Shown here one piece after another: positions 3,441 through 51,456 of a DNA stretch of 64,000 bases. Under the pieces are notes generated by a model. It saw only the letters and a program-made list of their open reading frames with translations, did no database searches and was not told the DNA's origin. Source of the DNA: an uncultured Gammaproteobacteria bacterium. Lineage in GTDB: Bacteria; Patescibacteriota; Patescibacteriia; SG8-24. Position numbers and translations under genes: made by a program. The stretch lies in assembly GCA_964491475.1 (NCBI GenBank), contig CAZBFO010000002.1, forward strand, positions 80,501 to 144,500, in the 5' to 3' direction. Each line of letters starts with the position of its first letter. Position 1 is the stretch's first letter.

Positions 3441-3617
3441 ATGAAGAAATTTGCCGATCAGCAACAAGCCAACAGCGCACTCATGGCCGCATGGGAACGG
3501 TTCGCCGCAAAGATGGACCGTATCCGCAAGTCGGTCATCAGCGTGTTGCAGGGCGTCGACCAGCGGCGCAGCGCAAAAGAGGCCGATGAGCTAAGAAAGC
3601 GCATTCAAGACTTATGA
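3441..3617 (+). CDS. small hypothetical protein (58 aa), first gene of a translationally coupled trio
   Basis: MKKFADQQQANSALMAAWERFAAKMDRIRK...; its stop overlaps the next start (ATGA at 3614-3617). Confidence 0.4.
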   Translation: MKKFADQQQANSALMAAWERFAAKMDRIRKSVISVLQGVDQRRSAKEADELRKRIQDL

Positions 3618-5275
3618 TTTCTGCACAGGAAGCACTGCCACGGAACGAACGCGAACGGAAAGAAGAGGCGCCGAAGGTGCCGGAAAAGCCTGCCGATCCG
3701 AGAGAAACGGGCAAGCAAATGCGCCAGGAAGGCACTCGGCTTACCGATGACGTCATGGAGTCAATCGATTCCGCGTGGGACGCGGCCGAGTCCCTCGGCG
3801 AGACGGGCGCGGAGACGGAACTTGAGTCGCTGCGCGACCAAGCCATCGACGCGAAAAAGGAGCTCGACGACTCGCTCGGCGAGATTGATTCCGGCTGGAC
3901 GGAAGATGAAGAGAAGGCTCCGGACACCGTGCGGGAGGACAGCGCGGCGGAAACGGCCGAGCTTGGCGAAAAAGAATTCGAGGCAGTGCAAGAGGCCGCA
4001 CGTCTGGCAGAAGACGTCCTCAACAGCGACGAGGGCTATTTTGAGGGCCTCGAAACGCTCTCAAGCATGGCCGCAGAAAATCCCGCAAAGCGCCAGGAGA
4101 TCCTCAAGCTCATGAAGGAACGCCTTGGCAATAGGGCGGCGGAAATCCTCGATTCTCCCGAGTTGCGCCGGGACCTGGCTGGCATGCAGGAACGCCTGGG
4201 CGGCCGCTGGGGCAACGAAAACGGTCCGCAAATCGCCACGGAACTGACGCTCGTCCGCTTGCTCGGCTTGCGCGAAACCATGGGATCGAACCCCGAACAG
4301 TTCGTGTCAGTCATCGACATGAAACGACGGCTCGAAGCCGCGGGCAACCCCGATACGTCCGACTATTCCGGCGGTCAGGAGATCCTCAACATCATGGAGT
4401 CCAAGGTGGATCCGGAGACCGGGGAGCTCACCGTCCGCGTCGAGGCGAACTTCATGCATGACGGAGCCATAGTCACCCGTGAATTCTCCAGGAGCGTCGA
4501 GAAGGGCAAGGACGGGAAGCCTCGAGTGAGGAAGAGCGTCGAACATTCGCTGCTGCTGCTTCCCGAACACATGAAAGCCAACGGCCTCGCCGCGGACCTC
4601 ACCCGCGATTCCCTGGCGGAGTATGACAAGATGGGCGTCGACGAGGTGACGCTCCACGCGGACATCGACATGGGCAGTTATGCCTGGGCCGCGTACGGCT
4701 ACGGCTGGGACAAGCAGGGGATGGCCGAGGCTTTCATGAAGTCGAGGAACAACGAGGAGTCTGAAATCGAGGTAGGCGGCGGCGTAAAGAAGGTCAAAGA
4801 CCTGACCCTCGACGAAAAATCGTCGCTGCTTGAAAGCAACAGGGAGGAATTGGCGCTCAAGGAAGTCGTCAGCGTCGTCAAAAAAGGACGCGAAAAAATT
4901 CAAAGCTGGCTGATAGACAGCGGGCTGGCCGAAGCGGGACCGCTGCTTGCGGAGCTCGACGCCCTCGAAAAGAATCCGCTCACTGTCACGCCGCAGACGA
5001 TGGCCGAGCTCGGCCGCAGCGGACCCAAGTTCTACCGCGACGAAAACAGCACCTGGTACAACGAAGCCACACTGGCCGAGGCGGTCACTGACGGCCGGAT
5101 CACCGCCAAGGAGGCCGAGGATGCCAAGAAAAAACCGTTCCATGCGGGCAAGATTGCGCTGCAGGACAACAGCTGGTTCGGCGCGATTGACCTCAAGCCC
5201 GACGGCGATCAGGGCGGCATGAATCGGAAGATGCTCGAAAAGTACCTTGCGAAGTCTTCTAACAAGAGCCAGTGA
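3614..5275 (+). CDS. hypothetical 553-aa protein with an acidic, low-complexity N-terminal third and a globular C-terminal part
   Basis: Long ORF with start/stop coupling to both neighbours. No signal peptide and no known motif recognised (distinctive ...LHADIDMGSYAWAAYGYGWDKQGM...). Confidence 0.5.
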   Translation: MISAQEALPRNERERKEEAPKVPEKPADPRETGKQMRQEGTRLTDDVMESIDSAWDAAESLGETGAETELESLRDQAIDAKKELDDSLGEIDSGWTEDEEKAPDTVREDSAAETAELGEKEFEAVQEAARLAEDVLNSDEGYFEGLETLSSMAAENPAKRQEILKLMKERLGNRAAEILDSPELRRDLAGMQERLGGRWGNENGPQIATELTLVRLLGLRETMGSNPEQFVSVIDMKRRLEAAGNPDTSDYSGGQEILNIMESKVDPETGELTVRVEANFMHDGAIVTREFSRSVEKGKDGKPRVRKSVEHSLLLLPEHMKANGLAADLTRDSLAEYDKMGVDEVTLHADIDMGSYAWAAYGYGWDKQGMAEAFMKSRNNEESEIEVGGGVKKVKDLTLDEKSSLLESNREELALKEVVSVVKKGREKIQSWLIDSGLAEAGPLLAELDALEKNPLTVTPQTMAELGRSGPKFYRDENSTWYNEATLAEAVTDGRITAKEAEDAKKKPFHAGKIALQDNSWFGAIDLKPDGDQGGMNRKMLEKYLAKSSNKSQ

Positions 5276-5610
5276 ACCTTATGATTGAGCGATCTCGCGG
5301 TATGGATCCAGACAGCGACAAGAAGGCGATGGAGGGCCGTCAAGTCGGCACGGACGGGCGGGAACTCGGCGACGCGGACTTTCATGCGAAAGGATACGAT
5401 TTCACTCCGGAAAAGGAACAGGAGGCGCTGGATGGCATCGCGGAACAGGAGATCGCGCTTGAGGAGCAGCAGGTAAAGTCCATCGCCGAGAATAGCGCCG
5501 AACTCGGCGTGAACGGGTACCGGCAGCTCATCAATCGTCACCCCGACGACCCGCGCGTCGATGCTTGGCGAAAGGCGATTAATCGGCTGGAATCCGGCAA
5601 TGCGGAGTGA
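5272..5610 (+). CDS. hypothetical acidic 112-aa protein, third coupled gene
   Basis: ATG overlaps the stop of the upstream gene. Followed by a bidirectional terminator. Confidence 0.45.
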   Translation: MNLMIERSRGMDPDSDKKAMEGRQVGTDGRELGDADFHAKGYDFTPEKEQEALDGIAEQEIALEEQQVKSIAENSAELGVNGYRQLINRHPDDPRVDAWRKAINRLESGNAE

Positions 5611-5630
5611 GACGTCAGCGCAAAAAGAAA

Positions 5631-5651
5631 AGCACGCTTCGCAGGCGTGCT
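5631..5651. terminator. bidirectional rho-independent terminator between convergent genes
   Basis: agcacgc-ttcgcag-gcgtgct hairpin flanked by an A-run (5' side) and T-run (3' side). Confidence 0.5.
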
Positions 5652-5671
5652 TTTAAGTTACGTTCGCGGGT

Positions 5672-6547
5672 TCAGTGCGTCGTTGCGGCTTCCAGCGTCA
5701 TGCGATGCAGCTCTACCACGCCGTCGGCATTCAGCCGGCGGCCGGCGTAGCCACCGGCGACGGTGAATGCGACCGGCACTCCGGCCTTTTTGCCCCAGTC
5801 GAAGACCAGGCGTTCGCGGTCGCGCAGCATCTCCTTGGTGATGCCTCGTAGCCCGCCGATGTCGCAGAGCTCGTACGGGTCCATCCCGGCGTTGTAGATG
5901 CACAGGGCGAAGTCGTTGCCGACCTCGTCCAGGCGTTTCGCGATGACCTTCAGATACTGTTGCTCGTCATGGACCAGGTCGAGCGTGTTGCCGCCGGAAG
6001 GGCGGTAGACGTCGAATGGGCAGACGGACACGTCCACGCTTCGGGCCCAGGGCATGTCGCCCAGCAGCTCATGCGTGCCGCCTCCGCAGTGGGCGTCCAA
6101 GTCAAGGACGAGAACTCTGCCGCCGATCTTGCGATGTGCGATGATGGCGGCGAGCGCGAGGCCGTTGAAGGTGCAGAACCCGTCGCCTCGCGCGAATCGG
6201 GCGTGGTGCAGGCCGCTCGAAAGCGTCCCTGCCACGCCGTCGTCGAGCGCCGCCATGGATGCGGCGACTACGCCTCCGGTGGAGGCGCAGACGGCGTTCC
6301 AGATGTTCTCGTCCCACGGGAACCCTTGGCTTTGCGCCCGGGACCTCGGAACGCCGGTCATGACGGAAGTCACGTACTCCTTTTCGTGGATTTCGGTCAG
6401 CTCCTCGTATGAGACCGGTGCAGGCGGCCGCATCTCGATGCCCGTCAGCGGTCGCTTAGAGAGGCTCTCGGCGATGTGGGCGGACTTGCGCGTCGTGTCG
6501 AATTCATGCCCTGAACTTGCGTAGATTTGACTGAAAAAGAGCTTCAT
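5672..6547 (-). CDS. histone deacetylase-family protein (AcuC / acetylpolyamine amidohydrolase-like)
   Basis: SGLHHARFARGDGFCTFNGLALAA, VLVLDLDAHCGGGT and GGGY motifs of the arginase/deacetylase fold; RBS AAGGAG before ATG (rev) at 6547. Confidence 0.75.
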   Translation of the reverse strand: MKLFFSQIYASSGHEFDTTRKSAHIAESLSKRPLTGIEMRPPAPVSYEELTEIHEKEYVTSVMTGVPRSRAQSQGFPWDENIWNAVCASTGGVVAASMAALDDGVAGTLSSGLHHARFARGDGFCTFNGLALAAIIAHRKIGGRVLVLDLDAHCGGGTHELLGDMPWARSVDVSVCPFDVYRPSGGNTLDLVHDEQQYLKVIAKRLDEVGNDFALCIYNAGMDPYELCDIGGLRGITKEMLRDRERLVFDWGKKAGVPVAFTVAGGYAGRRLNADGVVELHRMTLEAATTH

Positions 6548-6654
6548 TTGTTGACTCCTTGGTCAAAGGATTAGACCATAAAAACGGCTTTTTGTCAATG
6601 CTGACGGACTCGCTTTTGCTGGTCAACATGGCTCTTTTTTGCTAAAATAAGGTC

Positions 6655-8103
6655 ATGCGCGGTAAACATTTCTCCTTCGGCAACGGCAGCGTGGCCGCCC
6701 TGCTGGTTTTGGCCTCATTTGCGATTGCTTCGGGGGCGTTTGCCGCTTCTGGCACGGCCGCCGCAAAGGTCAGCAAGAACGTGGCGGTGTGGCAGTGGGG
6801 TGATTTCACGAAAGTTCCGACCGCCGTCCGCAACTTCGCGCCATTCGATGGCGCCGGTGCCGGCTCGATTGCCGTGCGGGACCTCGGCAGCGACGGTGTC
6901 GACGAGATCGTGGTCGGGTCGGGGTTCGGCGCGCCCTCCTCGGTGCGCGTGCTGCGTGCCGACGGCTCCAAGATTTTGGCATTCGCCCCGTTCGACAAGA
7001 CCATGCTGCAGGGAGTGAACGTGGCCGTCGGCGACCTGGACGGCGACGGCAAATCCGAGATCGTCGTGGGCACCGGTCCCGGTGCCGACGCGCGGGTGCG
7101 GGTGTTCGACAGCATGGGCAAGCCAAAGATTTTCCCCGACGGCCTGACGCCGTTCGCCTCGGACTTCCGCGGGGGAGTCAACGTGGCCATAGCCGACGTC
7201 GACGGCGACGGCAAGAACGACCTGATTACGTCCGCAGGTCCGACGGGCGGACCTGAAGTGAAGATTTGGAGCGGTTCCGGACTGTTGCTCGGTGACTTTT
7301 TTGCCTTTGATAACGGTCAGACCCAGGGGCTGCACATAGCTGTCGGCGACTTGGACGGCGACGGCAAATCCGAAATCGTGACGGCGCTCGAAGCCAACTC
7401 GCTGGCGTACGTCCGCGTCTTTTCCGGCGTGACCGGCACGAAGGTGGCCGAATTCCTTTCCATCGGTGACGGTTTCAGCGGCGGTCTCAATGTGGCCGTC
7501 GGTGACGTGAACGGCGACGGTAAGAACGAGATCGTCGTGGCGCCGAACGGCGAGGGGGGCCCTCGCGTCTTCGCATACGACATGCACGGCACGGCGCTCG
7601 GAAACTTCTTCGCCTACGACGAGGCCTATCGCGGCGGCGTGCTGCTCGCGGTCGGCAAGCTGGGCGACGGCAAGGCTTCCTCGCTGGTAACCGTGCCGGC
7701 CGAACGCACCGTCGACGGTCGCCCGCAGTTCGCCAAGTACGTCATGGTCGACGTTTCGGAACAGCGCCTGCGCGCCTTCGAATACGGCAAGCTGGTGAAG
7801 ACCTTCCTGGTGGCCACTGGCATGAAGAAATATCCCAGTCCGATCGGCGACTTCTCGGTCACGGAGAAACCGTACAAGGTGAACTACAAGTGGAACTACG
7901 GGCCGGGCAACCCCGACAACTACGATCTCGGCTGGGTCACCTGGAACTTGCGGTTCGCTCCCCACACCTACATCCACTATGCGCCGTGGCGCAAGGTGTT
8001 CGGCGTCCGCGGCAGTCACGGCTGCGTCAACGTCAGCAAGACCAATGCCGAGTGGATCTACGATTGGGGCGACGTCGGCATGCCCGTCACCATTCAGCCG
8101 TAA
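6655..8103 (+). CDS. secreted FG-GAP/VCBS-repeat protein with a C-terminal L,D-transpeptidase (YkuD) catalytic domain
   Basis: N-terminal signal peptide, then at least six repeats of the type VAVGDLDGDGKSEIVVG / IADVDGDGKNDLITS / VGDVNGDGKNEIVVA. The C-terminus carries YAPW...GVRGSHGCVNVS (the SHGC[VI]R-type LDT active-site motif). Confidence 0.75.
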   Translation: MRGKHFSFGNGSVAALLVLASFAIASGAFAASGTAAAKVSKNVAVWQWGDFTKVPTAVRNFAPFDGAGAGSIAVRDLGSDGVDEIVVGSGFGAPSSVRVLRADGSKILAFAPFDKTMLQGVNVAVGDLDGDGKSEIVVGTGPGADARVRVFDSMGKPKIFPDGLTPFASDFRGGVNVAIADVDGDGKNDLITSAGPTGGPEVKIWSGSGLLLGDFFAFDNGQTQGLHIAVGDLDGDGKSEIVTALEANSLAYVRVFSGVTGTKVAEFLSIGDGFSGGLNVAVGDVNGDGKNEIVVAPNGEGGPRVFAYDMHGTALGNFFAYDEAYRGGVLLAVGKLGDGKASSLVTVPAERTVDGRPQFAKYVMVDVSEQRLRAFEYGKLVKTFLVATGMKKYPSPIGDFSVTEKPYKVNYKWNYGPGNPDNYDLGWVTWNLRFAPHTYIHYAPWRKVFGVRGSHGCVNVSKTNAEWIYDWGDVGMPVTIQP

Positions 8104-8127
8104 GCCGCGGACGTCGCGGCTTTTTTG
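8104..8127 (+). terminator. rho-independent terminator
   Basis: gccgcg-gacgt-cgcggc followed by tttttt. Confidence 0.5.
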
Positions 8128-8130
8128 CGC

Positions 8131-8162
8131 AAAAAAATCCCCGCGACGGATGTCGAGGGGAA
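8131..8162 (-). terminator. putative terminator for the minus-strand ABC operon
   Basis: Imperfect ccccgcgac/gtcgagggg hairpin with the T-run on the minus strand. Confidence 0.35.
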
Positions 8163-8167
8163 GGGTT

Positions 8168-8992
8168 TCAGAGCGTGTTGAACTTCTCGCGGATTTCGCG
8201 GACCGTGTCGGCGAAAGCCGGATGTTTGGTGACGTCCGGCTGCCATGCCAGGCCGCGTTCGATCAGGTTGATGGTCTCCTTGACGTAGGCGCCTGGGACG
8301 ACGTTTCCTTCGGCGTCGCGGTCGCGGCCGATCAGCCAGATGGTGTCGGCGATCTGCACGCTCGAGGCGATGTCATGCGTCACCACGATGATGGTGGTGA
8401 GCTCGTTCAGCGCCGCGACCTCCGCGATGATCTCGCAGGCCTCGTCCTTCATGACGGGATCGAGGCCGGAGAACGGCTCGTCCATCAGCAGGAAGTGGTC
8501 GCTGCACATCAGCTGGCGGATGATGGCCACGCGCTGCTTCTGTCCGCCGGAGAGCTTCTTGGGAAAGCAGTCCTTCTTGTCCAGCAGCTTGAAGCGTTCC
8601 AGGAAGTCGTGGGCCTTTTTTGCCGCGGCTTTGGGCGCGAGTCCGCCCAGCTTGCCCGCGCGCATCAGGTTGCCCCAGACGGTGCGGTGCCGGAAGAGCG
8701 GATAGTTCTGCGGCACCACGCCGACCATGCCCGTCTGTACGGGGAGGGCCTCCTTGGTGACCAGCACTTCGCCGCTGGTCGGCTTGTTGAGTCCAGCCAG
8801 GATGCGGAACAGCTGCGTTTTGCCGATGCCCGACGGTCCGAGGATACTGACCACTTGGCCCTGGTTCTCCTTGTCGAGCCGGACCACGTCTTGGATTTCG
8901 GCGTTGAGGTCGCGCAGCACCGCCGTTTTGCCGAACGAGAGGTTGATGCCGTTGCATTTGAGCAACGTGCCGTCGTAACGATGAGCGATCAT
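8168..8992 (-). CDS. ABC transporter ATP-binding protein (NitT/TauT family, SsuB/TauB-like)
   Basis: Walker A GPSGIGKT, signature LSGGQKQR, Walker B LLMDEPFSGLD, H-loop VTHD. True start MIAHRY (ATG rev 8990-8992); the upstream 227 aa of the track ORF overlap the permease gene. Confidence 0.8.
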   Translation of the reverse strand: MIAHRYDGTLLKCNGINLSFGKTAVLRDLNAEIQDVVRLDKENQGQVVSILGPSGIGKTQLFRILAGLNKPTSGEVLVTKEALPVQTGMVGVVPQNYPLFRHRTVWGNLMRAGKLGGLAPKAAAKKAHDFLERFKLLDKKDCFPKKLSGGQKQRVAIIRQLMCSDHFLLMDEPFSGLDPVMKDEACEIIAEVAALNELTTIIVVTHDIASSVQIADTIWLIGRDRDAEGNVVPGAYVKETINLIERGLAWQPDVTKHPAFADTVREIREKFNTL

Positions 8993-8994
8993 GG

Positions 8995-9912
8995 TCAGGC
9001 CTCCTCGTCCGTCCAAGTGCAGATCTGCTTGCTTAGCCAGCCGATGAACCAGTCCTGCAGCAGCCCGACGACCATGATGGTCGCCTGGATGGCGAAGACC
9101 GCTTCCAGCCGGAAGTGCCTGTTCTCGTTGAGCAGCAGCGTGCCGATGCCGCCCTCGGTCCGGATGAGGCCTTCCACGGTGGTGAGCATCATCCAGGCGA
9201 TGGCCGCGTTCTGCCGCAGCGCCTCCAGCATCTTGTCGAAAGTGCCGAAGACGCCGACTTCGACGGCAGCCTGCCAGGGCGTCATGCGCAGCGTCCGCGC
9301 GTCGTCCCACTCCTCTTGAGGGATTTCCGCAATCACGGCGACCGTCGAGGTGGCGAAGAACGTGGTCATGCTGAAGGCCAGCATCCACACCTTGAGGGCG
9401 TGGCCACCGGCATACATGCCGAAGACGAAGGTCAGGCCGGTCAGGCTCAAGAACCGCATTTTGGTGACGAAAGCCACCGACGGCTTGAAGCCTGCCATCA
9501 CCGTGAGGTAGGCGAGCAGCAGCGAGGCCGCGGTGGCCGCAGCGATCGACTCGACGTTCAGGATGATGCTGGTCGCCAGCTCCTGCAGCAGGCCCTGGTT
9601 CTGGACCAGGTCCGCGAAGGAGGCGACTATCTGCATCGGCGTGGGAATCACGCGCGGCGCACCTACCGACCACCAGGTCAGCACGATCGCCGCGGTAATC
9701 AGGGCGATGGTGCGTACGGTGGTCTTGGAGCTGATGGCATTGGGCGTGAAAGCCGCCTTGATTGCGGCGGCGAGACCCGGAGAAGGCTTCTTGGCCTTCT
9801 TTTTGCGCTGCTTCTTGTCAGAAGCGGCGTCCGTTTCCGATGTTGCCTCCGACGCCGACCCCGCCAGCTGGTCCGGCGGCGTTTTGGTAGGCGGTGTTAC
9901 TTGCTGATCCAT
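8995..9912 (-). CDS. ABC transporter permease (NitT/TauT family, BPD-type)
   Basis: Polytopic membrane protein with EAA-like loop region. RBS AAGGAG before ATG (rev) 9910-9912. The Lys-rich N-terminal tail makes the exact start uncertain. Confidence 0.7.
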   Translation of the reverse strand: MDQQVTPPTKTPPDQLAGSASEATSETDAASDKKQRKKKAKKPSPGLAAAIKAAFTPNAISSKTTVRTIALITAAIVLTWWSVGAPRVIPTPMQIVASFADLVQNQGLLQELATSIILNVESIAAATAASLLLAYLTVMAGFKPSVAFVTKMRFLSLTGLTFVFGMYAGGHALKVWMLAFSMTTFFATSTVAVIAEIPQEEWDDARTLRMTPWQAAVEVGVFGTFDKMLEALRQNAAIAWMMLTTVEGLIRTEGGIGTLLLNENRHFRLEAVFAIQATIMVVGLLQDWFIGWLSKQICTWTDEEA

Positions 9913-10030
9913 TGGAAAGAGCTCCTTTTTTGAGAAATGTCATTTCTCCGAGAGGCCTTCACGGCGAAAGTCTCTCAGAAAAATGCCCGACCAGGTTGGT
10001 CGGGCGGCACGGCTGCATTGTCAGCGACGA

Positions 10031-11830
10031 TCAGCCGTTCGACTTGAGCACGATCCTGACGCGGCGGTTGGCTGCACGGCACACTGCCGAGTTGTCCCTC
10101 GTGCAGGCAGGATCGTTCTGGCCGTGACCGATCACCTTGATGCGGTTGGCCGGGAACGTCCCGCCGGACTTGGTAAGCAGGTACTGCATCACCGCGTTGG
10201 CGCGGTTTTGCGAAAGTACCTGGTTGCCGTCCGGAGTGCCGGTGTTGTCGGTGTACCCGTGTACCTCGACGACCGTGTTGCCCGAGACGGCCAGCTGTCC
10301 GAGCAGCGTGCCGAGCGGCGCCGCGGCATCGTTCGAGAACGAGGCGGAGCCAGTCTCGAAGTTGATGTGCCAGTCCTGGGCGGCGACCGTCGAGCTCGAC
10401 CCGGAGTTGGGGTCGAAGGTGTTGCTGTCGGCCGTGCCCTTGGGCTCACTGGACCGCATCAGCTCCTGCAGGTACGAGGTGTTGATCACCTCGTTCACTG
10501 CGGGGAACCGCGCCAGGTCCTGCGGGTACATCTCCTTGTCGTACGACCCGAAGATGTTGTAGGCGCTGGCGTAGTAGTTGAAGGCGCCGTCGAGGCCGAA
10601 GTAGCGGATGTTGTCCGCCAGGTTCCAGGCTCGGGAGCCGCCGAGCCAGACGGTGAGTCCCGTCAGGTCGACCTCGTTGCCACCTTGGTAGTACTTCATC
10701 CAGTACTGCCAGTTCTCCTCCTTGTACACCTCGGCGCTGGCTTCTGCGCCGCGCTTAAGCGCGGCGCCGCCGCGCTTGACTTGGTCGCCGCCCTCGAGCG
10801 TCGCGCGCACGAAGTTCAGCACCGTATCATGGTTGGCCGCGTCCCAGGCCTTGATGCCGATGAAGAGCGCGGCCATCTGGCTGTCGTTCTCCTTGGTGGA
10901 GAGGACCTTCACCAGGCCGCCTTTCTTGGTCGCTACGGCGACATCGCCTGGCGTCCATGTGGCCACGCCTTTGACGCAGGCGTCGACCTTGTTGCCGGTC
11001 TTCTGGCCGTTGACGACCGAAATGCGCTTGCTGCAGTAGCCCTGGATGTACTTCTCGTCCGCATCGACGAACGTGGTGGTGTTTTCCCAGTTCACGCAGT
11101 TTGCGTCGTGCGTCGTCGGGTCCGGGTTGGTGCAGAGGCCGTTCAGCTTGATCCAGTGATCGCAGATGTGCTGATCGCCGTCGCGGGGGACCGCGGCGAT
11201 GACCACGCCCCGCGCCAGCTGGGGGTTGGCCTTCATCTCGGGCGGAAGCATGCAGGCGTCCTCGCCGGCCGAACGTCCGGCGGCGAAGATGCCCTCTGCC
11301 TTGTACTGCGGTCCGATCTTCGTCAGCGCCGCGTTGGCGTCGTTGAAGAATGCCGGTCCGGCGTCGCCCATGATGACGACGAAGTTGGCGCTGCCAGCCT
11401 GCGTGCACTGCTTGGCTCCCTGCTGGAGCTCGGTGGCGCACGAGGCCAGTGCCTTGACCATCTCGCCGTAGTCGTCCTGTCGCTCGGTGACGAGGTTCAG
11501 GTCGTACCTCTCGGCCAAGCTGCCCTTCTTGGTCTGGGAGCCGCCGACGGCGTAGAGATGGCCCGTGACGGCGTTCCAGGCGATCGTCAGCGTCCTCACC
11601 CGCGGTCCCTTGGGGGCCGCTGGCGTGTTGCTGGCGATGTACTGGGCTTGCGCGCCGGTTCCGGGCTGCGTCTCGTTCTCGGTGAACTTGGACAGGTCGC
11701 CGCCGGACTTCTTCAGGTCCACGGACTGCATCTTGGCGTCGCCGTGGGTCCTGTAGTAGTTGATGCCGAAGGCGCCGCCGCCGACGGCAAGCGCGATGAG
11801 AGCGATCTTGACGGGTTTCCGAAGTGCCAT
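10031..11830 (-). CDS. membrane-anchored protein with a large extracytoplasmic domain and a C-terminal OmpA/MotB-type peptidoglycan-binding domain
   Basis: N-terminal signal-anchor IALIALAVGGGAFGINYY. C-terminus VEVHGYTDNTGTPDGNQVLSQNRANAVMQYLL...RRVRIVL is the canonical OmpA_C motif set. Confidence 0.65.
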   Translation of the reverse strand: MALRKPVKIALIALAVGGGAFGINYYRTHGDAKMQSVDLKKSGGDLSKFTENETQPGTGAQAQYIASNTPAAPKGPRVRTLTIAWNAVTGHLYAVGGSQTKKGSLAERYDLNLVTERQDDYGEMVKALASCATELQQGAKQCTQAGSANFVVIMGDAGPAFFNDANAALTKIGPQYKAEGIFAAGRSAGEDACMLPPEMKANPQLARGVVIAAVPRDGDQHICDHWIKLNGLCTNPDPTTHDANCVNWENTTTFVDADEKYIQGYCSKRISVVNGQKTGNKVDACVKGVATWTPGDVAVATKKGGLVKVLSTKENDSQMAALFIGIKAWDAANHDTVLNFVRATLEGGDQVKRGGAALKRGAEASAEVYKEENWQYWMKYYQGGNEVDLTGLTVWLGGSRAWNLADNIRYFGLDGAFNYYASAYNIFGSYDKEMYPQDLARFPAVNEVINTSYLQELMRSSEPKGTADSNTFDPNSGSSSTVAAQDWHINFETGSASFSNDAAAPLGTLLGQLAVSGNTVVEVHGYTDNTGTPDGNQVLSQNRANAVMQYLLTKSGGTFPANRIKVIGHGQNDPACTRDNSAVCRAANRRVRIVLKSNG

Positions 11831-11929
11831 GTTTCCTCTTCTTCCTTTTCTCGAATCGTTGTGGTTTCAGGCCATTATGGCCGTGGAAGGGAGGCGCGCC
11901 AGCCACGATGGCCGGCGCGCTTCACCTGT

Positions 11930-13006
11930 TCAGCTGTCGAAGAGCTTGTCGGTGTCGCTGGACGCGCCCATTTGCTTTTGGGCGGCCTGCTGTACCTGCT
12001 CGTCGTCAGCCTCGAGCGGCTCGCCGTCGGCGATGCGCTGCTTGGGCGGGGCATCCGGGTTGAGCCGGAGCCGTTCGGTGTTCTTGTCCCACGCCTGGAG
12101 CGCCTTGAGGGCGCTCTTGTTGTACTTGCTGTTCTTCCCGTCGACGGTCGCCAGGAAGCCCTTCGAGTCGTTCACGGCCATTTCGACCGCGCCGAGCCGA
12201 TCGGCCACCTTGTCGTCGATGATCTGCATCGCTTCGCGGTAGGCTTGCTTCAGCTGCGGGTCGCCGTTGATGATGGCCATGGCGTTGTCGGCGGCGTCGC
12301 CGGCGGCGGTCGAGGCCAGCAGCTCGGTTCGAGCCACCATCACCTCGTCCTTGGTGTCCTCGATGAGGAACTTCACGCCGTTGTGGATGCGCTTCAGCGT
12401 CTTGGCGGTCGCTTGCAGAGTGACGAGCATCTTGGAAAGACGCTCGACCGCCGCTTCGCGGCGGCCGTACTTGTTGGCCGCGCGGGTCGCCTCGTTCGCC
12501 TCGTCCTCGTCGGCCGTTGCCGCGTTGGGGTTGGTGTTGACGTGTTGCCCGTTCTGCTGGGCGTTCTGCATGCTGCCCAGCGCCTCCTCCATCTCCTCCT
12601 TCATGGTGGCGATGCGCCGCTCCAGTCCGGTGACCTGGGTCTGCAGAGCTTGGCGGTTTGCGCCCATCTCGCGTTCCCGTTTCTCCATGTGAGCGATGTT
12701 CAGCTCCAGGTTCCCGATGGGATCCCAGGTGAGCAGGCTGCGGCGCAGCTTGCGCATCATCAGCCGGTAGGCGCGTCCGACCAGGAAGTGAGCGTCCTTG
12801 TCGAAGGCCACATAGCCGATTGCGCCGATGACGCCGAGTCCGGCGCCGATCTGCAGCAGATTCCACTCGAGGTTGAGCAGCGTCGGGGCGACTTGCACCA
12901 GGCCGTAAACGGCACCGGCACCGACGCCTCCGACGATCAGTCCGCCGGCGACCTTTTCGCCGGTGGTCAGCACCACGTCCTTCTTCGGGGTAGGGGAATC
13001 AGCCAT
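11930..13006 (-). CDS. membrane-anchored coiled-coil protein (PspA/TelA-like stress-protein architecture; unassigned)
   Basis: Start MADSPTPKK (ATG rev 13004-13006). Two predicted TM helices followed by about 280 aa of heptad-rich, E/K/Q/A-rich sequence. Confidence 0.45.
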   Translation of the reverse strand: MADSPTPKKDVVLTTGEKVAGGLIVGGVGAGAVYGLVQVAPTLLNLEWNLLQIGAGLGVIGAIGYVAFDKDAHFLVGRAYRLMMRKLRRSLLTWDPIGNLELNIAHMEKREREMGANRQALQTQVTGLERRIATMKEEMEEALGSMQNAQQNGQHVNTNPNAATADEDEANEATRAANKYGRREAAVERLSKMLVTLQATAKTLKRIHNGVKFLIEDTKDEVMVARTELLASTAAGDAADNAMAIINGDPQLKQAYREAMQIIDDKVADRLGAVEMAVNDSKGFLATVDGKNSKYNKSALKALQAWDKNTERLRLNPDAPPKQRIADGEPLEADDEQVQQAAQKQMGASSDTDKLFDS

Positions 13007-13008
13007 GA

Positions 13009-13791
13009 CTATTGCGCTCCTGTGTTTGCCTTGATGTTTTGCTTGACTGCCTGCCACTTGGCGCGGAAGGCGTGGATGGTGGCGAGGAAGCTGTTGAGCT
13101 TGTTGGTCAACTTCTCCCTCTCCGTGCTGACGGAGGCGAGCGTCTGCTGACGTTCGCTTTCCATCCGGACCACCTCCTGCTGGAGGCGGACGATTTCCGC
13201 GTTCTTGGCAGCGACGGCCTGGGCGATGCCTTCGGCCTTCTGCTCGAGCCCGCCGACGCGCTCCTTCGTTTTCTTCTCGAAGGACACGCGCAGGTCCTGC
13301 TCGCGCTTGTCGATGGCGGCCAGGCACTCGTCCACGTCCGTGAGGATCGCGGGGAGCGTATGGCCCTGCACGCCGACGGCGGCCGCCGCGGCCTGAATGC
13401 GCTGCATATCGTTGGGGATGTGCTGGCGCATGGCCGACTCGGCAGCTTCGAACGCCGTGAAGGCGGGCTTGGCTGCCTCGGTCGTTTCTTTCTCGAGGAT
13501 GGCCGCGTACTCCGGGTCTATCGCCGTCTGGGGCGTCGTCACGGGGTACGAAGGCACCGTGCCGTAGTTGGGCACGGGCGTCTGCGGGTAGGACGGTCGT
13601 TGGGGAGGAGCCGACGCGGCGCTCTTGGCCGGAGCTTTCGCTTTGGCCTTGGGCTTCTCGTCTTCGTCCTCGTCGCCCTCTTCCGGTTCGGTCACGGCGT
13701 TCTTGACCGCCTGACCGGCCTTCTTGATTGCGCCAAAAAAACCGCCCCCCTCGTCGCTCGCGGGGGACTCGTCATCGTCTTTAGCCGACAT
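13009..13791 (-). CDS. coiled-coil protein with acidic and Pro-rich N-terminus; upstream partner of 11930..13006
   Basis: Its stop sits 2 nt before the next start. C-terminal 120 aa coiled-coil (…EIVRLQQEVVRMESERQQTLASVSTEREKL…). Confidence 0.45.
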   Translation of the reverse strand: MSAKDDDESPASDEGGGFFGAIKKAGQAVKNAVTEPEEGDEDEDEKPKAKAKAPAKSAASAPPQRPSYPQTPVPNYGTVPSYPVTTPQTAIDPEYAAILEKETTEAAKPAFTAFEAAESAMRQHIPNDMQRIQAAAAAVGVQGHTLPAILTDVDECLAAIDKREQDLRVSFEKKTKERVGGLEQKAEGIAQAVAAKNAEIVRLQQEVVRMESERQQTLASVSTEREKLTNKLNSFLATIHAFRAKWQAVKQNIKANTGAQ

Positions 13792-19540: not shown

Positions 19541-20896
19541 CTATTCCTTCCGTGCAATGTTCTTCAGTGCAGGTTCGATGGCGATCGCGTGCGATGCGCC
19601 GTAGACGACAAACGGTTTTTTCCCCTTTGCCTTGGCAGCTGCGATTTGCCGCACCAGATGCTTGTCCCGTTCGCTGTTCCAGGCGGCGGAAACCTTGTTG
19701 ATGGTGCTGACGTTGCCGCGCGGATCATGCTGCGCGTTGACGGCGTCCATAGCCACCTTTTGGTCGTCCGGAACGCCCTCATTGCGGCGCAGGAGTCCTT
19801 CCAGGGAGGGAACAAGCGTCTTCGCGTCGGCCTTGCCTGTTTCCGCGAAGGCGCGGTTCGCGCCTGCCACGTATTCCGCCACCACCTTCGTCGTGAGCGC
19901 CTCGAGGGTCGGCACGTCTCTCTTGGCCACCGCCGCGTCAACGGCCGTTCTTGTCTCCTCATTGATCCATTTCGTGCCGGCCAAGCGGTCGAAGTCGTAA
20001 AACATGCGCGCAAACTCCAGTTTGGAACTCTCGGGTGTCGCGTCGGGATGCGGTTGGCCGATTTCCGAAGTGAATTGGCGCATGGTCAGATAGAGACCGA
20101 TCTCATCTTTCGAAAAACCTTGTGCGCCAAGTTCGGCCACGATTTGGTCCTGCGGCTTTTCCGGCGAAGTCACCTCAACGCCCTCGTTCTTCGCCGTCCA
20201 GAGCAACGCCCCTTTTTCGCCGAATTTTTTTACGGCTTCGGCTTCGTTGTCCAAGCCGTGCAAAAGCTTGGTGAGGCCGTCTTGAGCGAGGTCTTCCGGA
20301 TTGTATATGCCTTCGACCATGAATACCGCGTCTTTCTTCGAGGTTCCGGCGAGAAAGGCGTCACGCTGCTTTGCAAGCGCCTTCACCGTTTCGGATTCCG
20401 GGTTGTTGGTATGCGCCGTGCCGATTACTTCATAACCGTCCTCGGCAGAACCGTAGGTCAGATTTTTTCCTCCCATGGTTTCGATTTTTTCCCGCATCGC
20501 CGCATCGTCATAGCCGACGAGCAGCTTGATGGCGTTCTCGGCATCAAGTACCCCCTTCTCCCGTTGCAGTTCCTGGAGTCGTTCCGCCTGTCTTGCCGCG
20601 AAAGCGATGGGGGACTCCACAACGTTGCCGTGAATGAGCGACTTGCTTTCCGGGCTGATTTCGGTCGCCAAGGCAGATTCGATGGCCGACGCGTAGGCCG
20701 CGAACTTGGCTTCCTTCTCCTTCTGGAACGCCGCCAGCCTCTCGGGCGCGACGGCGTCCGGAGCGATGCGGTCGGCCTCCGTCTCGATCTCTTGCCGTCG
20801 TTCAGCGCGTGGCTGCTCCAGAGAAACTTGCCGCTCATTTGGGCGTTCTGGCGACGCGGGCCGCTCTTTGGACGCCGCATTTTCGCGTTCATTCAT
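19541..20896 (-). CDS. TraB/GumN-family-like protein with an E/R-rich N-terminal extension
   Basis: VIGTAHTNNPES (GTxH motif) and C-terminal PFVVYGASHAIAIEPAL (the family's second conserved Gly/His motif); start uncertain. Confidence 0.45.
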   Translation of the reverse strand: MNERENAASKERPASPERPNERQVSLEQPRAERRQEIETEADRIAPDAVAPERLAAFQKEKEAKFAAYASAIESALATEISPESKSLIHGNVVESPIAFAARQAERLQELQREKGVLDAENAIKLLVGYDDAAMREKIETMGGKNLTYGSAEDGYEVIGTAHTNNPESETVKALAKQRDAFLAGTSKKDAVFMVEGIYNPEDLAQDGLTKLLHGLDNEAEAVKKFGEKGALLWTAKNEGVEVTSPEKPQDQIVAELGAQGFSKDEIGLYLTMRQFTSEIGQPHPDATPESSKLEFARMFYDFDRLAGTKWINEETRTAVDAAVAKRDVPTLEALTTKVVAEYVAGANRAFAETGKADAKTLVPSLEGLLRRNEGVPDDQKVAMDAVNAQHDPRGNVSTINKVSAAWNSERDKHLVRQIAAAKAKGKKPFVVYGASHAIAIEPALKNIARKE

Positions 20897-20929
20897 ATCG
20901 TTGCGTGCATGGCGATGCGTTATCCTTTT

Positions 20930-21736
20930 TCACGACGTTTCGGGATTGGCCGGATCGGCAGTCATCGCCCTGAATAAGATGGCAATCGGACGTTCTTCGG
21001 CTCGTTCAAGGGAAGTTTGGTCGATTACAATCGAGGCTTCTTCAGCATGCTCGTGCCGGAAATCTTTCTCCAGCTCCATGGCGTTCTCCAGGCAGTAACA
21101 AAGTTCCATGAAACTGGTCTCGTCCTTGTAGCCCGCGTTTGTCGAGGCGTGTTGTTTGAAGTATGCGCTAAAAAAATCGCGAAGATTGGCGCCCGGTTCG
21201 GGGAGGCCTTTCGGCGCAAGGTGATGAGTCCAAATGACGATCTTTGGCTTCACGATTTCGATGTTTTTTCGGATGACGTTCAGTGAGCCGGGCAACTTCG
21301 CACCATCGGCTTTTGGAGGTGCCATGAAGACGATGTCCGGTTGCCCTATTTCCGAGAGCTGGTCGGCGGTAAGCACGTGGGAATTGTCGGCAAAATGGGC
21401 GAGCCGAATGCCATCCACGGTGTAGTGCCAAGCGATGTTCAGGTCGCCATTATGTTCATATACGACCGTGCCGCGCAGGTTGAAGTTCGGGAAAGGGTTG
21501 TCGTTCGGCTTGGTGCGCGGGGCATGTTGCAGCCAGTCGCCGGGTGCGTAGGCGTGGTCGGCGTCAGGTTCGCTCATGAGCACGATATTTGCGCCGAACG
21601 GCTTTCCTCGGAAAGTCGACGGGAACGATGCGCCCAACGTCCATTCCGGTGCGGGATTGAAGGGGTCGATGAGCACCCTGAAGCCTTTCTCGTTTTCTAT
21701 TAAAAATGACGAGAGGCCGATAAAAGTAATCTTCAT
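20930..21736 (-). CDS. MBL-fold metallo-hydrolase
   Basis: Beta-lactamase-fold motif MSEPDADHA (HxHxDH-like). The track ORF begins at an alternative TTG (21745); the first ATG is at 21734-21736 (MKITFIGL). Confidence 0.55.
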   Translation of the reverse strand: MKITFIGLSSFLIENEKGFRVLIDPFNPAPEWTLGASFPSTFRGKPFGANIVLMSEPDADHAYAPGDWLQHAPRTKPNDNPFPNFNLRGTVVYEHNGDLNIAWHYTVDGIRLAHFADNSHVLTADQLSEIGQPDIVFMAPPKADGAKLPGSLNVIRKNIEIVKPKIVIWTHHLAPKGLPEPGANLRDFFSAYFKQHASTNAGYKDETSFMELCYCLENAMELEKDFRHEHAEEASIVIDQTSLERAEERPIAILFRAMTADPANPETS

Positions 21737-21784
21737 ATGCGGCAATTATACCAAATTTGAAAAAGCGGTCTGCAGTTGCCAAAC

Positions 21785-21813
21785 TTGCCACCACGCGCCC
21801 CATCCTTAATAAT
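21785..21813 (+). promoter_or_regulatory. candidate sigma70-type promoter for valS
   Basis: TTGCCA, 16-17 nt spacer, TAATAA/AATAAT, in the AT-richer gap upstream of valS. Confidence 0.25.
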
Positions 21814-21839
21814 GAACATCTATTGTTTTCCCTCTTGTT

Positions 21840-24611
<2,772 letters not shown>

Positions 24612-32498: not shown

Positions 32499-34184
32499 AT
32501 GTCAACGTTCTTCTCCGACTTTCCGACATTGCTTACCCAGACTTCCATCGTGAATTTTTCGGTGGCGGTATTGGCCGTGCTTCTCGGTCTGATCGTGCTG
32601 TGGGGCAAACGGACCAGCCCGATTCATCAGCTTTTTTTCCTAGTCGCCTTCGACACGGGTTTCTGGTCGTTCTCGTCGACGATGGCCGACGTGGTCCGCG
32701 ATACGGCGTCCGCGATGACCTGGACCAAGATGGCCATCGTGGGCCCCTTCTTCCTGTCTGCGGCGTTCCTCTGCCTGTCGTACTATTTTTCCGAAAAGAA
32801 AGAGACGTTGAGCAAAAAGAAGGCATTCGTCATCTTCCTTCCCAGCATCGTCGCCCTCGCGCTTACGCCCACCAGCCTGAACGTCGTCAGCGTGACCCTG
32901 CAGCCCTGGGGCACCGATTTCGTGCCCGGGCCCCTTTACACGGTGCTTCTCGCGCATCTCCTGCTGTACTTCATGCTTGCCGGCAGGCGCCTGTACCGCG
33001 CCTACCGCAAGAGCGCCGATCCCATCGCCAGAAAGCAGATCCTGTTCCTGATGGCGGGCATCATCCTCGTGGTCGCCTCGGGTGTCATCACCAACCTGAT
33101 CCTGCCGACGGTCTTCGATTACACGCGCGCCAGCGTCATCGGCCCGGCGGCGACGCTGTTCTTCGTCATCCTGACGATGTATGCCATCGTCCGGCACGGC
33201 CTGCTGAACCTGAAGATCATCGCCACGGAAATTTTCGCGGGCATCTTCGTCTTCATCAATTTCATCCAGCTGTTCAATTCCGCGACTACGGCCGAGTTCG
33301 CCACCAACGTGACGGTGTTCGTCTGCACGACGCTCGCCGCGATCCTGCTCATCCGCAGCGTCTTCGACGAGGTCCGCCGGCGCGAGGAAATCCAGACGCT
33401 CGCCGCCCAACTCGAATCCGCCAACGCCCACCTCAAGGAGATGGACAGCCTCAAGAACGAGTTCATTTCCATCGCCTCGCACCAGCTGCGCACTCCCATC
33501 ACCGTCATCAAGGGGTATCTGGCGCTGATGCTCGAGGGCGCCTACGGGCCGCTCTCCGACTCGCTGCACGAGAAGGTCGTGAACATGAACCTGATGAACG
33601 AGCGCCTGGTGCAGATGATCAACAACATGCTGAACGTCTCGCGCATCGAGAAGAACCGCATCGAGTACACCTGCGCCGTCATCGACCTGTATCCGGTCAT
33701 CGGCCAGGCCGTCGAGGAGATGGCCGCAAAGGCATCGATGAAGGGGATCGGCCTGCGCATCGAGGGTGCCACGTTCGGACCAGTCGAGGCGTATGTCGAC
33801 ATGGAAAAGACCATCGAGATACTTTCCAACCTGATCGACAATTCCATAAAGTATTCGTCCAAGGGAACGATCTCGATCTCCGCGACGCTCTTCGTCAGGA
33901 AGAAATGCGTGGTGGTGACCGTCGCCGACGAGGGATACGGCATGAACAAGGAGGACCTGCAGAAAGTCTTCACGAAGTTCTACAGGTCCAGCGACCCGGC
34001 GATCGTGAGCCAGGGCGGGACCGGTCTCGGCCTGTACGTCTGCGCCATGTTCGTCCGCGGCATGGGCGGCGACATCTGGGTCGAGAAGAGCGCGCCCGGA
34101 AAGGGTACGTCCATTTCCTTCGCGCTCCCGACCGAACCGGGCGGGGAATGCGCGGCACCGGCCAAGAAGAAGGCTCGCGTCTGA
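32499..34184 (+). CDS. sensor histidine kinase with polytopic N-terminal membrane domain (no cognate response regulator in the window)
   Basis: About 7 predicted TM helices, HisKA ASHQLRTP, HATPase_c N/G1/G2 boxes (LIDNSIKYS, GTGLGL). Confidence 0.8.
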   Translation: MSTFFSDFPTLLTQTSIVNFSVAVLAVLLGLIVLWGKRTSPIHQLFFLVAFDTGFWSFSSTMADVVRDTASAMTWTKMAIVGPFFLSAAFLCLSYYFSEKKETLSKKKAFVIFLPSIVALALTPTSLNVVSVTLQPWGTDFVPGPLYTVLLAHLLLYFMLAGRRLYRAYRKSADPIARKQILFLMAGIILVVASGVITNLILPTVFDYTRASVIGPAATLFFVILTMYAIVRHGLLNLKIIATEIFAGIFVFINFIQLFNSATTAEFATNVTVFVCTTLAAILLIRSVFDEVRRREEIQTLAAQLESANAHLKEMDSLKNEFISIASHQLRTPITVIKGYLALMLEGAYGPLSDSLHEKVVNMNLMNERLVQMINNMLNVSRIEKNRIEYTCAVIDLYPVIGQAVEEMAAKASMKGIGLRIEGATFGPVEAYVDMEKTIEILSNLIDNSIKYSSKGTISISATLFVRKKCVVVTVADEGYGMNKEDLQKVFTKFYRSSDPAIVSQGGTGLGLYVCAMFVRGMGGDIWVEKSAPGKGTSISFALPTEPGGECAAPAKKKARV

Positions 34185-34200
34185 CGTGAGGGGAGGGGCT

Positions 34201-34222
34201 TGGCCGGTTTTCGGCCTTTTTG
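34201..34222 (+). terminator. rho-independent terminator after the histidine kinase
   Basis: ggccg-gttttc-ggcc then ttttt. Confidence 0.45.
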
Positions 34223-34247
34223 ACACTCCGTAGGGCGCTGTTATAAT
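34220..34247 (+). promoter_or_regulatory. sigma70-type promoter, perfect TTGACA-16-TATAAT, upstream of bactofilin
   Basis: TTGACA 34220-34225; TATAAT 34242-34247. Confidence 0.55.
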
Positions 34248-34313
34248 CAGCCTGTCTTAAACCATTTCCCACAGGGCGTCTCCACAGAGCCGCACGCTTG
34301 GGCGCTTGTCTCT

Positions 34314-34778
34314 ATGTTTCAGAAAAACACGTCGTCGGATCGCGAATTCGGTGGAGCGCATGAACCGGAAACCGTCATCGCCGCTTCGGTGAAGGTCGAG
34401 GGTGACTTCCAGAGCCAGGGCAACGTCCTGATCGAAGGCGTGGTCGAGGGCAGCCTCAAGACCGAACGGGACCTCCGCGTGGGCGAGCGCGCCCGCATTT
34501 CTGCCGACGTCGCCGCCGCCAACGCCACGGTTGCCGGCGAGGTCCGCGGCAACCTGATCGTCAGCGAGCGCCTTGAGCTCGAGGCGACCGCGCGCATTTT
34601 CGGCGACATCCGCACCAAGACGCTGGTGGTCGCCAACGGCGCCACCCTCAACGGCAGGCTCGTCATGGGCGCAGAGGCCGTCGAGGAGCCGCGCAAGGGC
34701 CGCAACGCCAAGACCGCCGCGGAGATCGTGAAGGAAGAGGAGGAGAAGACGCTCGCGCCGTTCCTCACCCGCAGCTAA
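34314..34778 (+). CDS. bactofilin (DUF583) family cytoskeletal protein
   Basis: Repetitive beta-helical VKVEGDF...GNVLIEGVVEGSL...AGEVRGNLIV...ATLNGRL, flanked by charged termini. Confidence 0.75.
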   Translation: MFQKNTSSDREFGGAHEPETVIAASVKVEGDFQSQGNVLIEGVVEGSLKTERDLRVGERARISADVAAANATVAGEVRGNLIVSERLELEATARIFGDIRTKTLVVANGATLNGRLVMGAEAVEEPRKGRNAKTAAEIVKEEEEKTLAPFLTRS

Positions 34779-51418: not shown

Positions 51419-51447
51419 TTGACAGGGTAAGGAAAAATGTGTATTTT
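51419..51447 (+). promoter_or_regulatory. candidate promoter TTGACA-17-TATTTT upstream of the epimerase gene (alternative: TTGCTA-17-TAATAA at 51375-51403)
   Basis: Consensus -35 box; the -10 would leave only a very short leader before ATG 51457, so the upstream alternative may be the functional one. Confidence 0.35.
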
Positions 51448-51456
51448 GAGGAGGAT

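Follow-up and report, generated by a model that had tools for sequence, protein, structure and literature searches.

Predicted L,D-transpeptidases carrying a six-bladed FG-GAP propeller are widespread in Patescibacteria

What does a beta-propeller do on a cell-wall enzyme? The question is raised by a gene on the plus strand of a 64,000-nucleotide stretch of DNA (the window, hereafter; GenBank assembly GCA_964491475.1, contig CAZBFO010000002.1, positions 80,501 to 144,500), deposited as an uncultured Gammaproteobacteria bacterium and placed by GTDB in Patescibacteriota (Patescibacteriia; SG8-24). The gene, at 6655-8103, encodes a signal peptide, FG-GAP repeats and a C-terminal YkuD domain, the catalytic domain of L,D-transpeptidases. 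A preliminary description made from the sequence alone had recognized this composition, which our searches bore out; it had also considered the combination unusual, and had suggested that the enzyme is directed to a protein or glycan ligand rather than to peptidoglycan itself. The first of these last two points did not hold, and the second found no support. The protein is best summarized as a widespread but undescribed propeller version of what is probably an ordinary peptidoglycan L,D-transpeptidase. Our preferred reading, to which we give a probability of roughly 0.6, is that bacteria of the Candidate Phyla Radiation (CPR; Patescibacteria) export this L,D-transpeptidase through the Sec system to act on peptidoglycan, and that the propeller keeps or places it in the wall of the producing cell.

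In a scan for open reading frames (ORFs), the ATG at 6655 was the earliest possible start, with an in-frame stop three codons before it. The guanine-plus-cytosine (GC) content by codon position (0.63/0.46/0.82) matches that of the other genes of the window. An overlapping minus-strand ORF (6715-8019) is unsupported and was rejected as a chance ORF, the plus frame being the one with the codon-position GC pattern of a real gene. Local hidden Markov models of the propeller and of YkuD matched this ORF alone, so the window holds no second copy. The gene and the features of its catalytic end, in amino acid (aa) numbering, are listed here; A1 denotes an alignment that comprises 40 homologues of full length (32-84% identity), in which the conservation of the propeller loops was also scored.

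6655 to 8103, plus strand: whole gene, one 482-aa ORF for a secreted FG-GAP propeller plus YkuD L,D-transpeptidase
7735 to 8097, plus strand: YkuD catalytic domain, aa 361-481 (Pfam PF03734)
7867 to 7950, plus strand: insert, aa 405-432 (KPYKVNYKWNYGPGNPDNYDLGWVTWNL), aligning to the mycobacterial flap (lid) region (alignment to 6d51/4k73)
7975 to 7977, plus strand: catalytic His441, invariant in alignments A1 and A2
8014 to 8031, plus strand: active-site motif S454-H455-G456-C457-V458-N459, with C457 as nucleophile, invariant in A1

The protein belongs to the YkuD family by profile, by motif and by fold. PF03734 aligned to aa 361-480 from position 2 to position 146 of its 146 (E=2.6e-26; 93.4 bits, gathering cutoff 23.4), a match that, like those to FG-GAP, is far beyond chance. 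The SHGC motif noted at the outset (aa 454-457) is invariant in the 40 homologues, as are H441, W445, G450, N459, W467 and W471, together with each residue of the motif (S454, H455, G456 and C457); C457 is the sole cysteine in the whole protein. Among solved structures, the best sequence relative was Mycobacterium tuberculosis LdtMt3 (6d51/4k73), at E=1.2e-10 when the protein alone was the query and 1.4e-15 when the family profile was used; next came M. smegmatis Ldt, M. abscessus Ldt2, LdtMt1, LdtMt2 and Enterococcus faecium Ldtfm. The preliminary description had named the absence of the catalytic His or Cys, on alignment to YkuD structures, as what would speak against it; both are present, H441 and the SHGCxN motif aligning with the active site of LdtMt3. 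Foldseek gave a probability of 1.00 to LdtMt1, LdtMt2 and M. smegmatis Ldt, with E values of about 1e-9 to 4xvo, 4jmn and 4gsu, and the predicted local distance difference test (pLDDT) of the domain in AlphaFold2 is mostly 86-97. Conservation extends to the insert, which, going by the structure of LdtMt2, may be the active-site flap (lid): W413, Y415, G416, N422, Y423, D424, V428 and L432 are either invariant or conserved to 90% or more in the 40 homologues.

Direct reading of the sequence upstream gave six repeats of about 51-54 residues each, in agreement with the at least six FG-GAP-type repeats first described, and two AlphaFold2 models (full-length and propeller-only) also have six blades:

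6781 to 6837, plus strand: N-terminal strands, aa 43-47 and 56-61, predicted to complete blade 6 ("velcro" closure; DSSP on the two AlphaFold2 models)
6850 to 7011, plus strand: blade 1, aa 66-119, with loop DLGSDGVDE at aa 76-84 (relaxed motif in 37/40 homologues)
7012 to 7173, plus strand: blade 2, aa 120-173, with calcium-type loop DLDGDGKSE at aa 127-135 (strict motif in 37/40)
7174 to 7326, plus strand: blade 3, aa 174-224, with loop DVDGDGKND at aa 181-189 (strict motif in 32/40)
7327 to 7482, plus strand: blade 4, aa 225-276, with loop DLDGDGKSE at aa 232-240 (motif kept in 16/40)
7483 to 7635, plus strand: blade 5, aa 277-327, with loop DVNGDGKNE at aa 284-292 (strict motif in 32/40)
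7636 to 7704, plus strand: C-terminal half of blade 6, aa 328-350, with degenerate GKLGDGK (canonical GDVDGDG in about 15/40)
7705 to 7734, plus strand: short interdomain linker, aa 351-360 (pLDDT dips to 72 in the full-length model)

Pfam placed FG-GAP (PF01839) on five stretches (E=3.9e-22; 78.1 bits, gathering cutoff 22.1) and also matched FG-GAP_3 (PF13517; E=1.9e-19; 70.5 bits, gathering cutoff 26.9), the two together covering aa ~66-350. The loop D-x-D/N/G-x-D-G-x-x-E/D occurs in five repeats, starting at D76, D127, D181, D232 and D284, and blades 2-5 fit the strict calcium-type motif; to judge from these residues, five loops are of the calcium type and may be occupied by calcium. The stretch of blade 2 aligns to blades of integrin alpha-IIb. 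Across the 40 homologues, the conserved propeller positions are mainly structural glycines and loop residues. The loops are lost blade by blade in a lineage-dependent manner (window 7348-7374 and 7654-7674; alignment A1): that of blade 6 is degenerate in the subclade of the window and canonical in distant members, and that of blade 4 behaves in the opposite way, being degenerate (NVDGG...) in distant homologues.

Modelled alone (aa 36-352), the propeller is a closed single domain with a pLDDT of 95.2 and a predicted template-modelling score (pTM) of 0.93. Both models have 24 beta-strands forming six four-stranded blades, the last made of strands 329-336 and 341-348 plus the N-terminal strands 43-47 and 56-61, and this strand count suggests that the N-terminal strands close the ring. 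The number of blades is a point beyond the preliminary description. The propeller belongs to the FG-GAP repeat family but is not of the integrin type, having six blades where integrin alpha and PVL propellers have seven, and those of YesW and Bap1 eight. With integrin alpha, PVL/PAL, Bap1, YesW, TcB and CRTAC1 it shares the repeat family (FG-GAP, FG-GAP_3), the D-x-D-x-D-G calcium-type loops and the four-stranded blades, but the template-modelling (TM) scores to these known propellers are about 0.5-0.6 at most, so that there is no close solved homologue. Its best global Foldseek matches were the six-bladed NHL domains of Brat and TRIM2 (TMq 0.58, TMt 0.66). Integrin headpiece chains gave TMt of 0.38-0.41, and the matches to integrin alpha, the rhamnogalacturonan lyase YesW, the Vibrio cholerae matrix protein Bap1, TcB of Tc toxins and the N-acetylglucosamine (GlcNAc) lectin PAL (5mb4) were only partial. 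The TcB propeller of Tc toxins has six blades, and a Pfam match of our protein to TcdB_toxin_midN (31.7 bits) is consistent with this.

The remaining part of the protein is its export signal:

6655 to 6744, plus strand: predicted Sec-type signal peptide, aa 1-30 (MRGKH..., hydrophobic core, A-F-A, then the cleavage point; read from the sequence)

By its composition the N-terminus is a classical Sec signal peptide, which is probably cleaved. A basic N-terminal region, a hydrophobic core and an AxA-type end are found in the protein and in all 39 homologues aligned with it, and residues 10-33 form a low-confidence helix in the full-length AlphaFold2 model. Two homologues, P0024 and P0025 (45-46% identical), have signal peptides ending in a lipobox-like L-F-A-C, so some family members may be lipid-anchored instead of released.

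A propeller on a YkuD enzyme proved to be far from unusual. A protein search returned 3838 matches, and in the best 120, where the architecture was read, 114 have FG-GAP plus YkuD at about 440-500 aa; the named sources among these 120 are Patescibacteria, Parcubacteria, Uhrbacteria and Kerfeldbacteria metagenome-assembled genomes (MAGs), under the NCBI name "L,D-transpeptidase family protein". Among genomes taken one per species, about 30 full-length matches were found, all of the FG-GAP plus YkuD type, with a single match in Saccharibacteria. We also used the linker plus YkuD domain as query on 1.84 billion cluster representatives at 50% identity (4703 matches, 50 at E<=1e-30). A local hmmsearch found the propeller in 98 of the 150 best YkuD representatives, the other 52 being fragments or proteins with PG_binding_4 or Big_5/Big_10 preceding YkuD, largely from Chloroflexota-type genomes. 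The propeller form is thus the predominant one of this YkuD subfamily in Patescibacteria, and all taxonomically interpretable carriers are Patescibacteria genomes.

To our knowledge, no characterised L,D-transpeptidase has an FG-GAP propeller module. NCBIfam had nothing near its cutoffs for this protein and no model covering the architecture. In the library that we searched, no paper describes a YkuD plus FG-GAP transpeptidase; the CPR papers listed there mention neither YkuD nor ErfK, and the one CPR paper found to mention FG-GAP deals with unrelated large Cys-rich proteins. The preliminary description had allowed that it would be undermined if the architecture proved common and already characterised. 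Only the first half of this came true, as the architecture is common but uncharacterised: it is abundant in databases under generic annotations, not specific to this window, and yet undescribed.

The taxonomic labels of some carriers call for comment. In the window itself, the nearest named relatives of the valyl-tRNA synthetase (ValRS) are from Candidatus Parcubacteria (65%), the "Patescibacteria group" (57-60%) and Uhrbacteria. Several carrier contigs (L004, L007, L009, L012, L014, L018, L020, L024 and L029) come from TPA_asm MAGs titled "uncultured Gammaproteobacteria". We rejected the wider distribution that such titles would imply: the SecD encoded next to the gene in L004 (3325-5031) matches a "Patescibacteria group" protein at 100% identity, and every named relative of this SecD is patescibacterial, which makes the label incorrect for L004 at the least. 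This SecD has an inserted PPIC-type peptidyl-prolyl isomerase domain, common to its 120 best homologues. A different case is P0098 (contigs L083 and L084, 5001-7430), a protein of 809 aa with the domains in reverse order, YkuD at aa 38-152 and then about 12 FG-GAP repeats. The contig on which it lies, with genes for TetR, CoA-transferase and transketolase, does not look patescibacterial; P0098 appears to be an independent YkuD/FG-GAP fusion outside CPR.

Comparison with known enzymes gives no support to a target other than peptidoglycan, the catalytic domain being closest to enzymes that form 3-3 cross-links and its sister proteins carrying PG_binding_4 or Big_5. Mycobacterial LdtMt1, LdtMt2 and LdtMt3 (4jmn, 3tur/5du7 and 6d51) and M. 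smegmatis Ldt (4xvo) have the same YkuD fold, with an aligned H...SHGCxN set and an aligned flap-like insert. Like the protein studied here, they are exported and have their catalytic domain at the C-terminus, behind non-catalytic beta-rich domains. Catalytic-domain identity in the structural alignments is 14-23%. The differences lie in the N-terminal module, one or two immunoglobulin (Ig)-like (Big_5) domains instead of a six-bladed FG-GAP propeller, and in the signal, a lipoprotein or membrane anchor instead of a predicted cleavable peptide. E. faecium Ldtfm (1zat, 6fj1; profile E ~2e-11), a monoderm wall enzyme, has the same YkuD domain and motif, but another N-terminal domain and a membrane anchor, with neither propeller nor calcium loops. 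The nearest non-propeller relatives (38-49% identity; P0223, P0241 and P0200, from Chloroflexota and others) are PG_binding_4 plus YkuD and Big_5 plus YkuD proteins of similar length, with YkuD also C-terminal and a different accessory module. Since PG_binding_4 or Big_5 occupies the same slot in these relatives, the propeller is probably a swapped-in targeting or scaffold module.

By analogy with these enzymes, Cys457 and His441, under the flap-like insert, would attack the bond between the L-centre and D-Ala of a tetrapeptide stem, and the acyl group would be passed to the side-chain amine of a neighbouring stem, giving 3-3 cross-links in the wall of the producing cell; the enzyme might also exchange D-amino acids as a side reaction. 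This activity is suggested because the closest characterised relatives cross-link peptidoglycan in this manner and the sister proteins carry peptidoglycan-binding modules, and nothing in the sequence seems to point away from peptidoglycan as the substrate. The propeller would be non-catalytic, closed by its N-terminal strands, with up to five calcium-type loops lending it rigidity, and it would stand where the nearest relatives have PG_binding_4 or Ig-like Big_5 domains. After cleavage of the signal peptide it would hold the enzyme in the wall, most plausibly through glycan strands or another wall polymer. We favour a role in retention or positioning because a cleaved, secreted enzyme needs such a module in a cell that presumably lacks an outer membrane, and the propeller may bind the wall itself, since other propellers of the FG-GAP type are known to bind GlcNAc or polysaccharides. 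PVL, for instance, is a GlcNAc lectin resembling integrins, and calcium occupies its loops (PMC4456360). Both peptidoglycan synthesis and S-layer proteins are encoded in CPR genomes (PMC4736985).

Several points weigh against this reading. In 32 full-length loci, no peptidoglycan-synthesis gene was a conserved neighbour. How the two domains are oriented towards each other is uncertain, the full-length model (pLDDT 90) having a pTM of 0.78 against 0.93 for the propeller alone, with the pLDDT of 72 in the linker. The reading also presumes that the CPR envelope is monoderm, with no outer membrane, as cryo-electron microscopy indicates. Finally, the active site departs from the usual in two details: His441 and Ser454 are separated by 12 residues, two fewer than in the mycobacterial enzymes (14 in the aligned LdtMt3; 14-17 in the published motif), and a Tyr instead of Ser follows the catalytic His. 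Neither the short spacing nor the Tyr removes a catalytic residue.

Four rival explanations rank below the preferred reading. The one that survives best, although we consider it unlikely, is that the YkuD domain links an S-layer, pilus or adhesin subunit to peptidoglycan while the propeller docks this protein, which is close to the idea put forward in the preliminary description. The E. coli enzymes ErfK, YbiS and YcfS link Lpp covalently to peptidoglycan, and propellers are classic platforms for protein-protein contacts, the best global fold match here being NHL, then integrins. Some family members bear the JGI name "lipoprotein-anchoring transpeptidase ErfK/SrfK", which is a generic COG name only, and CPR genomes are rich in surface proteins (PMC11665869, PMC4736985). 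However, the closest solved relatives are 3-3 cross-linkers, and none of the 60 best is an enzyme of the Lpp-anchoring type; beside the 32 loci there is no conserved gene that could encode a substrate, no NCBIfam equivalog was reached, and the modules of the sister proteins are peptidoglycan-binding or Ig-like, none of them protein-recruiting.

A further proposal concerns the propeller more than the chemistry. It could be a calcium-dependent lectin of a new subtype, reading strands of GlcNAc and N-acetylmuramic acid (GlcNAc/MurNAc), a secondary wall polymer or a host surface, and so determining the sites at which this CPR-specific enzyme cross-links or attaches material. We hold this to be improbable; if true, the enzyme would serve ultra-small episymbiotic bacteria in attachment or wall fusion and would not be a housekeeping wall enzyme.

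Still less probable is a host-directed wall remodeller, acting on host peptidoglycan at the site where an episymbiont attaches, with the propeller reading host glycan. The confinement of the architecture to Patescibacteria, an apparently cleavable signal peptide and the lack of an obvious anchor in most members would all suit such an enzyme, and an action on the envelopes of hosts has been proposed for surface enzymes of Patescibacteria (PMC11665869). On the other side, cross-linking the wall of a host brings no evident benefit. The gene sits among housekeeping genes in a conserved position, the family is commonest in groundwater lineages of the Parcubacteria/ABY1 type, whose hosts are unknown or, for some Paceibacteria, reported to be archaea, which lack peptidoglycan, and Saccharibacteria contributed only the one match.

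We attach a similarly low probability to a hydrolase, in which YkuD, acting as an L,D-carboxypeptidase or an endopeptidase, would trim stems or cut 3-3 links for turnover or cell shape. DpaA/LdtF of E. coli is one YkuD-fold hydrolase, and the unusually short His-Ser spacing and the Tyr in place of Ser after the catalytic His could be taken as signs of a similar role. Helicobacter pylori Csd6 is another such enzyme with a hydrolytic role (PMC4599014). Yet the full H...SHGCxN set is conserved along with the flap-like insert, which would form donor and acceptor cavities, and Csd6 and other hydrolytic members fall outside the 60 best solved relatives. Least probable of all is that the propeller binds no ligand and is a rigid spacer or scaffold setting the catalytic reach of what would still be a 3-3 transpeptidase, like the Ig-like pair of LdtMt2: Big_5 Ig-like domains in the same slot of sister proteins, the mostly structural nature of the conserved propeller positions and the lipobox-like LFAC of two homologues, which could be membrane-tethered, agree with it, but the signal peptide of most members is cleavable and they lack an anchor, so that a pure spacer would let the enzyme diffuse away, and the reverse-order fusion outside CPR is easier to explain by a binding function of the repeats.

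The propeller-YkuD family appears to be the standard YkuD enzyme of Patescibacteria, in which a compact calcium-loop propeller replaces the usual peptidoglycan-binding or Ig-like module. Patescibacteria make up a large, mostly uncultured share of bacteria, and there is almost no experimental knowledge of how their walls are built and maintained. The protein, soluble and well predicted (pLDDT 90-95), could serve as a target for asking whether CPR walls have 3-3 cross-links, how wall enzymes are retained where there is no outer membrane, and whether FG-GAP propellers act as wall lectins. Carbapenems inhibit the L,D-transpeptidase class and could become a selective tool in co-cultures. Nothing known is overturned and the catalytic chemistry is expected to be conventional; we regard the family as moderately interesting, not surprising.

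The gene is a stand-alone, monocistronic transcription unit, as indicated by a divergent upstream gene (a histone-deacetylase family protein), a promoter-like site of its own and a terminator hairpin facing a convergent gene. Its flanking signals are:

6620 to 6648, plus strand: promoter-like TGGTCA, 17 nt, TAAAAT, with extended TG (TGcTAAAAT); consensus match only
8104 to 8126, plus strand: intrinsic-terminator-like hairpin GCCGCG-GACGT-CGCGGC followed by T6, immediately 3' of the stop codon

A consensus promoter scan found this one site, against 0.3 expected; it ends 7 nt before the ATG. Reading of the sequence at 6620-6655 revealed no well-spaced Shine-Dalgarno sequence. The mRNA may be leaderless, as the -10-like element ends so close to the start codon. 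Between the convergent transpeptidase and ABC-transporter genes (8104-8160) lie two terminator-like hairpins face to face, that of the plus strand with a folding energy of -14.8 kcal/mol (z = -1.8) and that of the minus strand, CCCCTCGAC/GTCGCGGGG followed by T7, with -15.5 kcal/mol (z = -3.8); a consensus terminator scanner flagged neither.

Clustering of ORFs of at least 90 aa across the 32 full-length loci gave no consistently conserved neighbour, and none that is wall-related. PHP-like, 2-hydroxyacid dehydrogenase, SecDF and nucleotidyltransferase genes were considered as conserved operon partners and rejected, each occurring in small subsets of loci only. An 82%-identical orthologue (P0002; GCA_023246195.1) has the same adenosine deaminase and GCS2 flanks as the window, with HAD, DHH and ValRS genes beyond. 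When the window is set beside L002, a syntenic contig (adenosine deaminase, transpeptidase, GCS2), an extra block appears on each side of the gene. The first (3614-6547) holds a 553-aa acidic protein without a Pfam family, a 102-aa ORF and the histone-deacetylase-family gene. The second (8168-13791) is a minus-strand operon for an ABC ATPase, a membrane protein of 305 aa, a protein of 599 aa with an OmpA-type peptidoglycan-binding domain at its end, and two unknowns.

Elsewhere the window carries housekeeping genes among many proteins without a Pfam family. A 450-aa ORF on the minus strand (19541-20896), with no Pfam family, lies at a dip in GC (0.55 at 20001-22000, against about 0.62 elsewhere). 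At 57936-63968, also on the minus strand, are long ORFs of 862, 606 and 427 aa with no Pfam family, which failed the codon-position GC filter for typical genes and may not be real. Genes unlinked to that of the transpeptidase include a histidine kinase with an N-terminal seven-transmembrane domain (HisKA_7TM), followed by a bactofilin gene (32499-34778), and other envelope-related genes, for an O-antigen-ligase-like Wzy_C protein (44413-45828) and a sugar epimerase (51439-52398).

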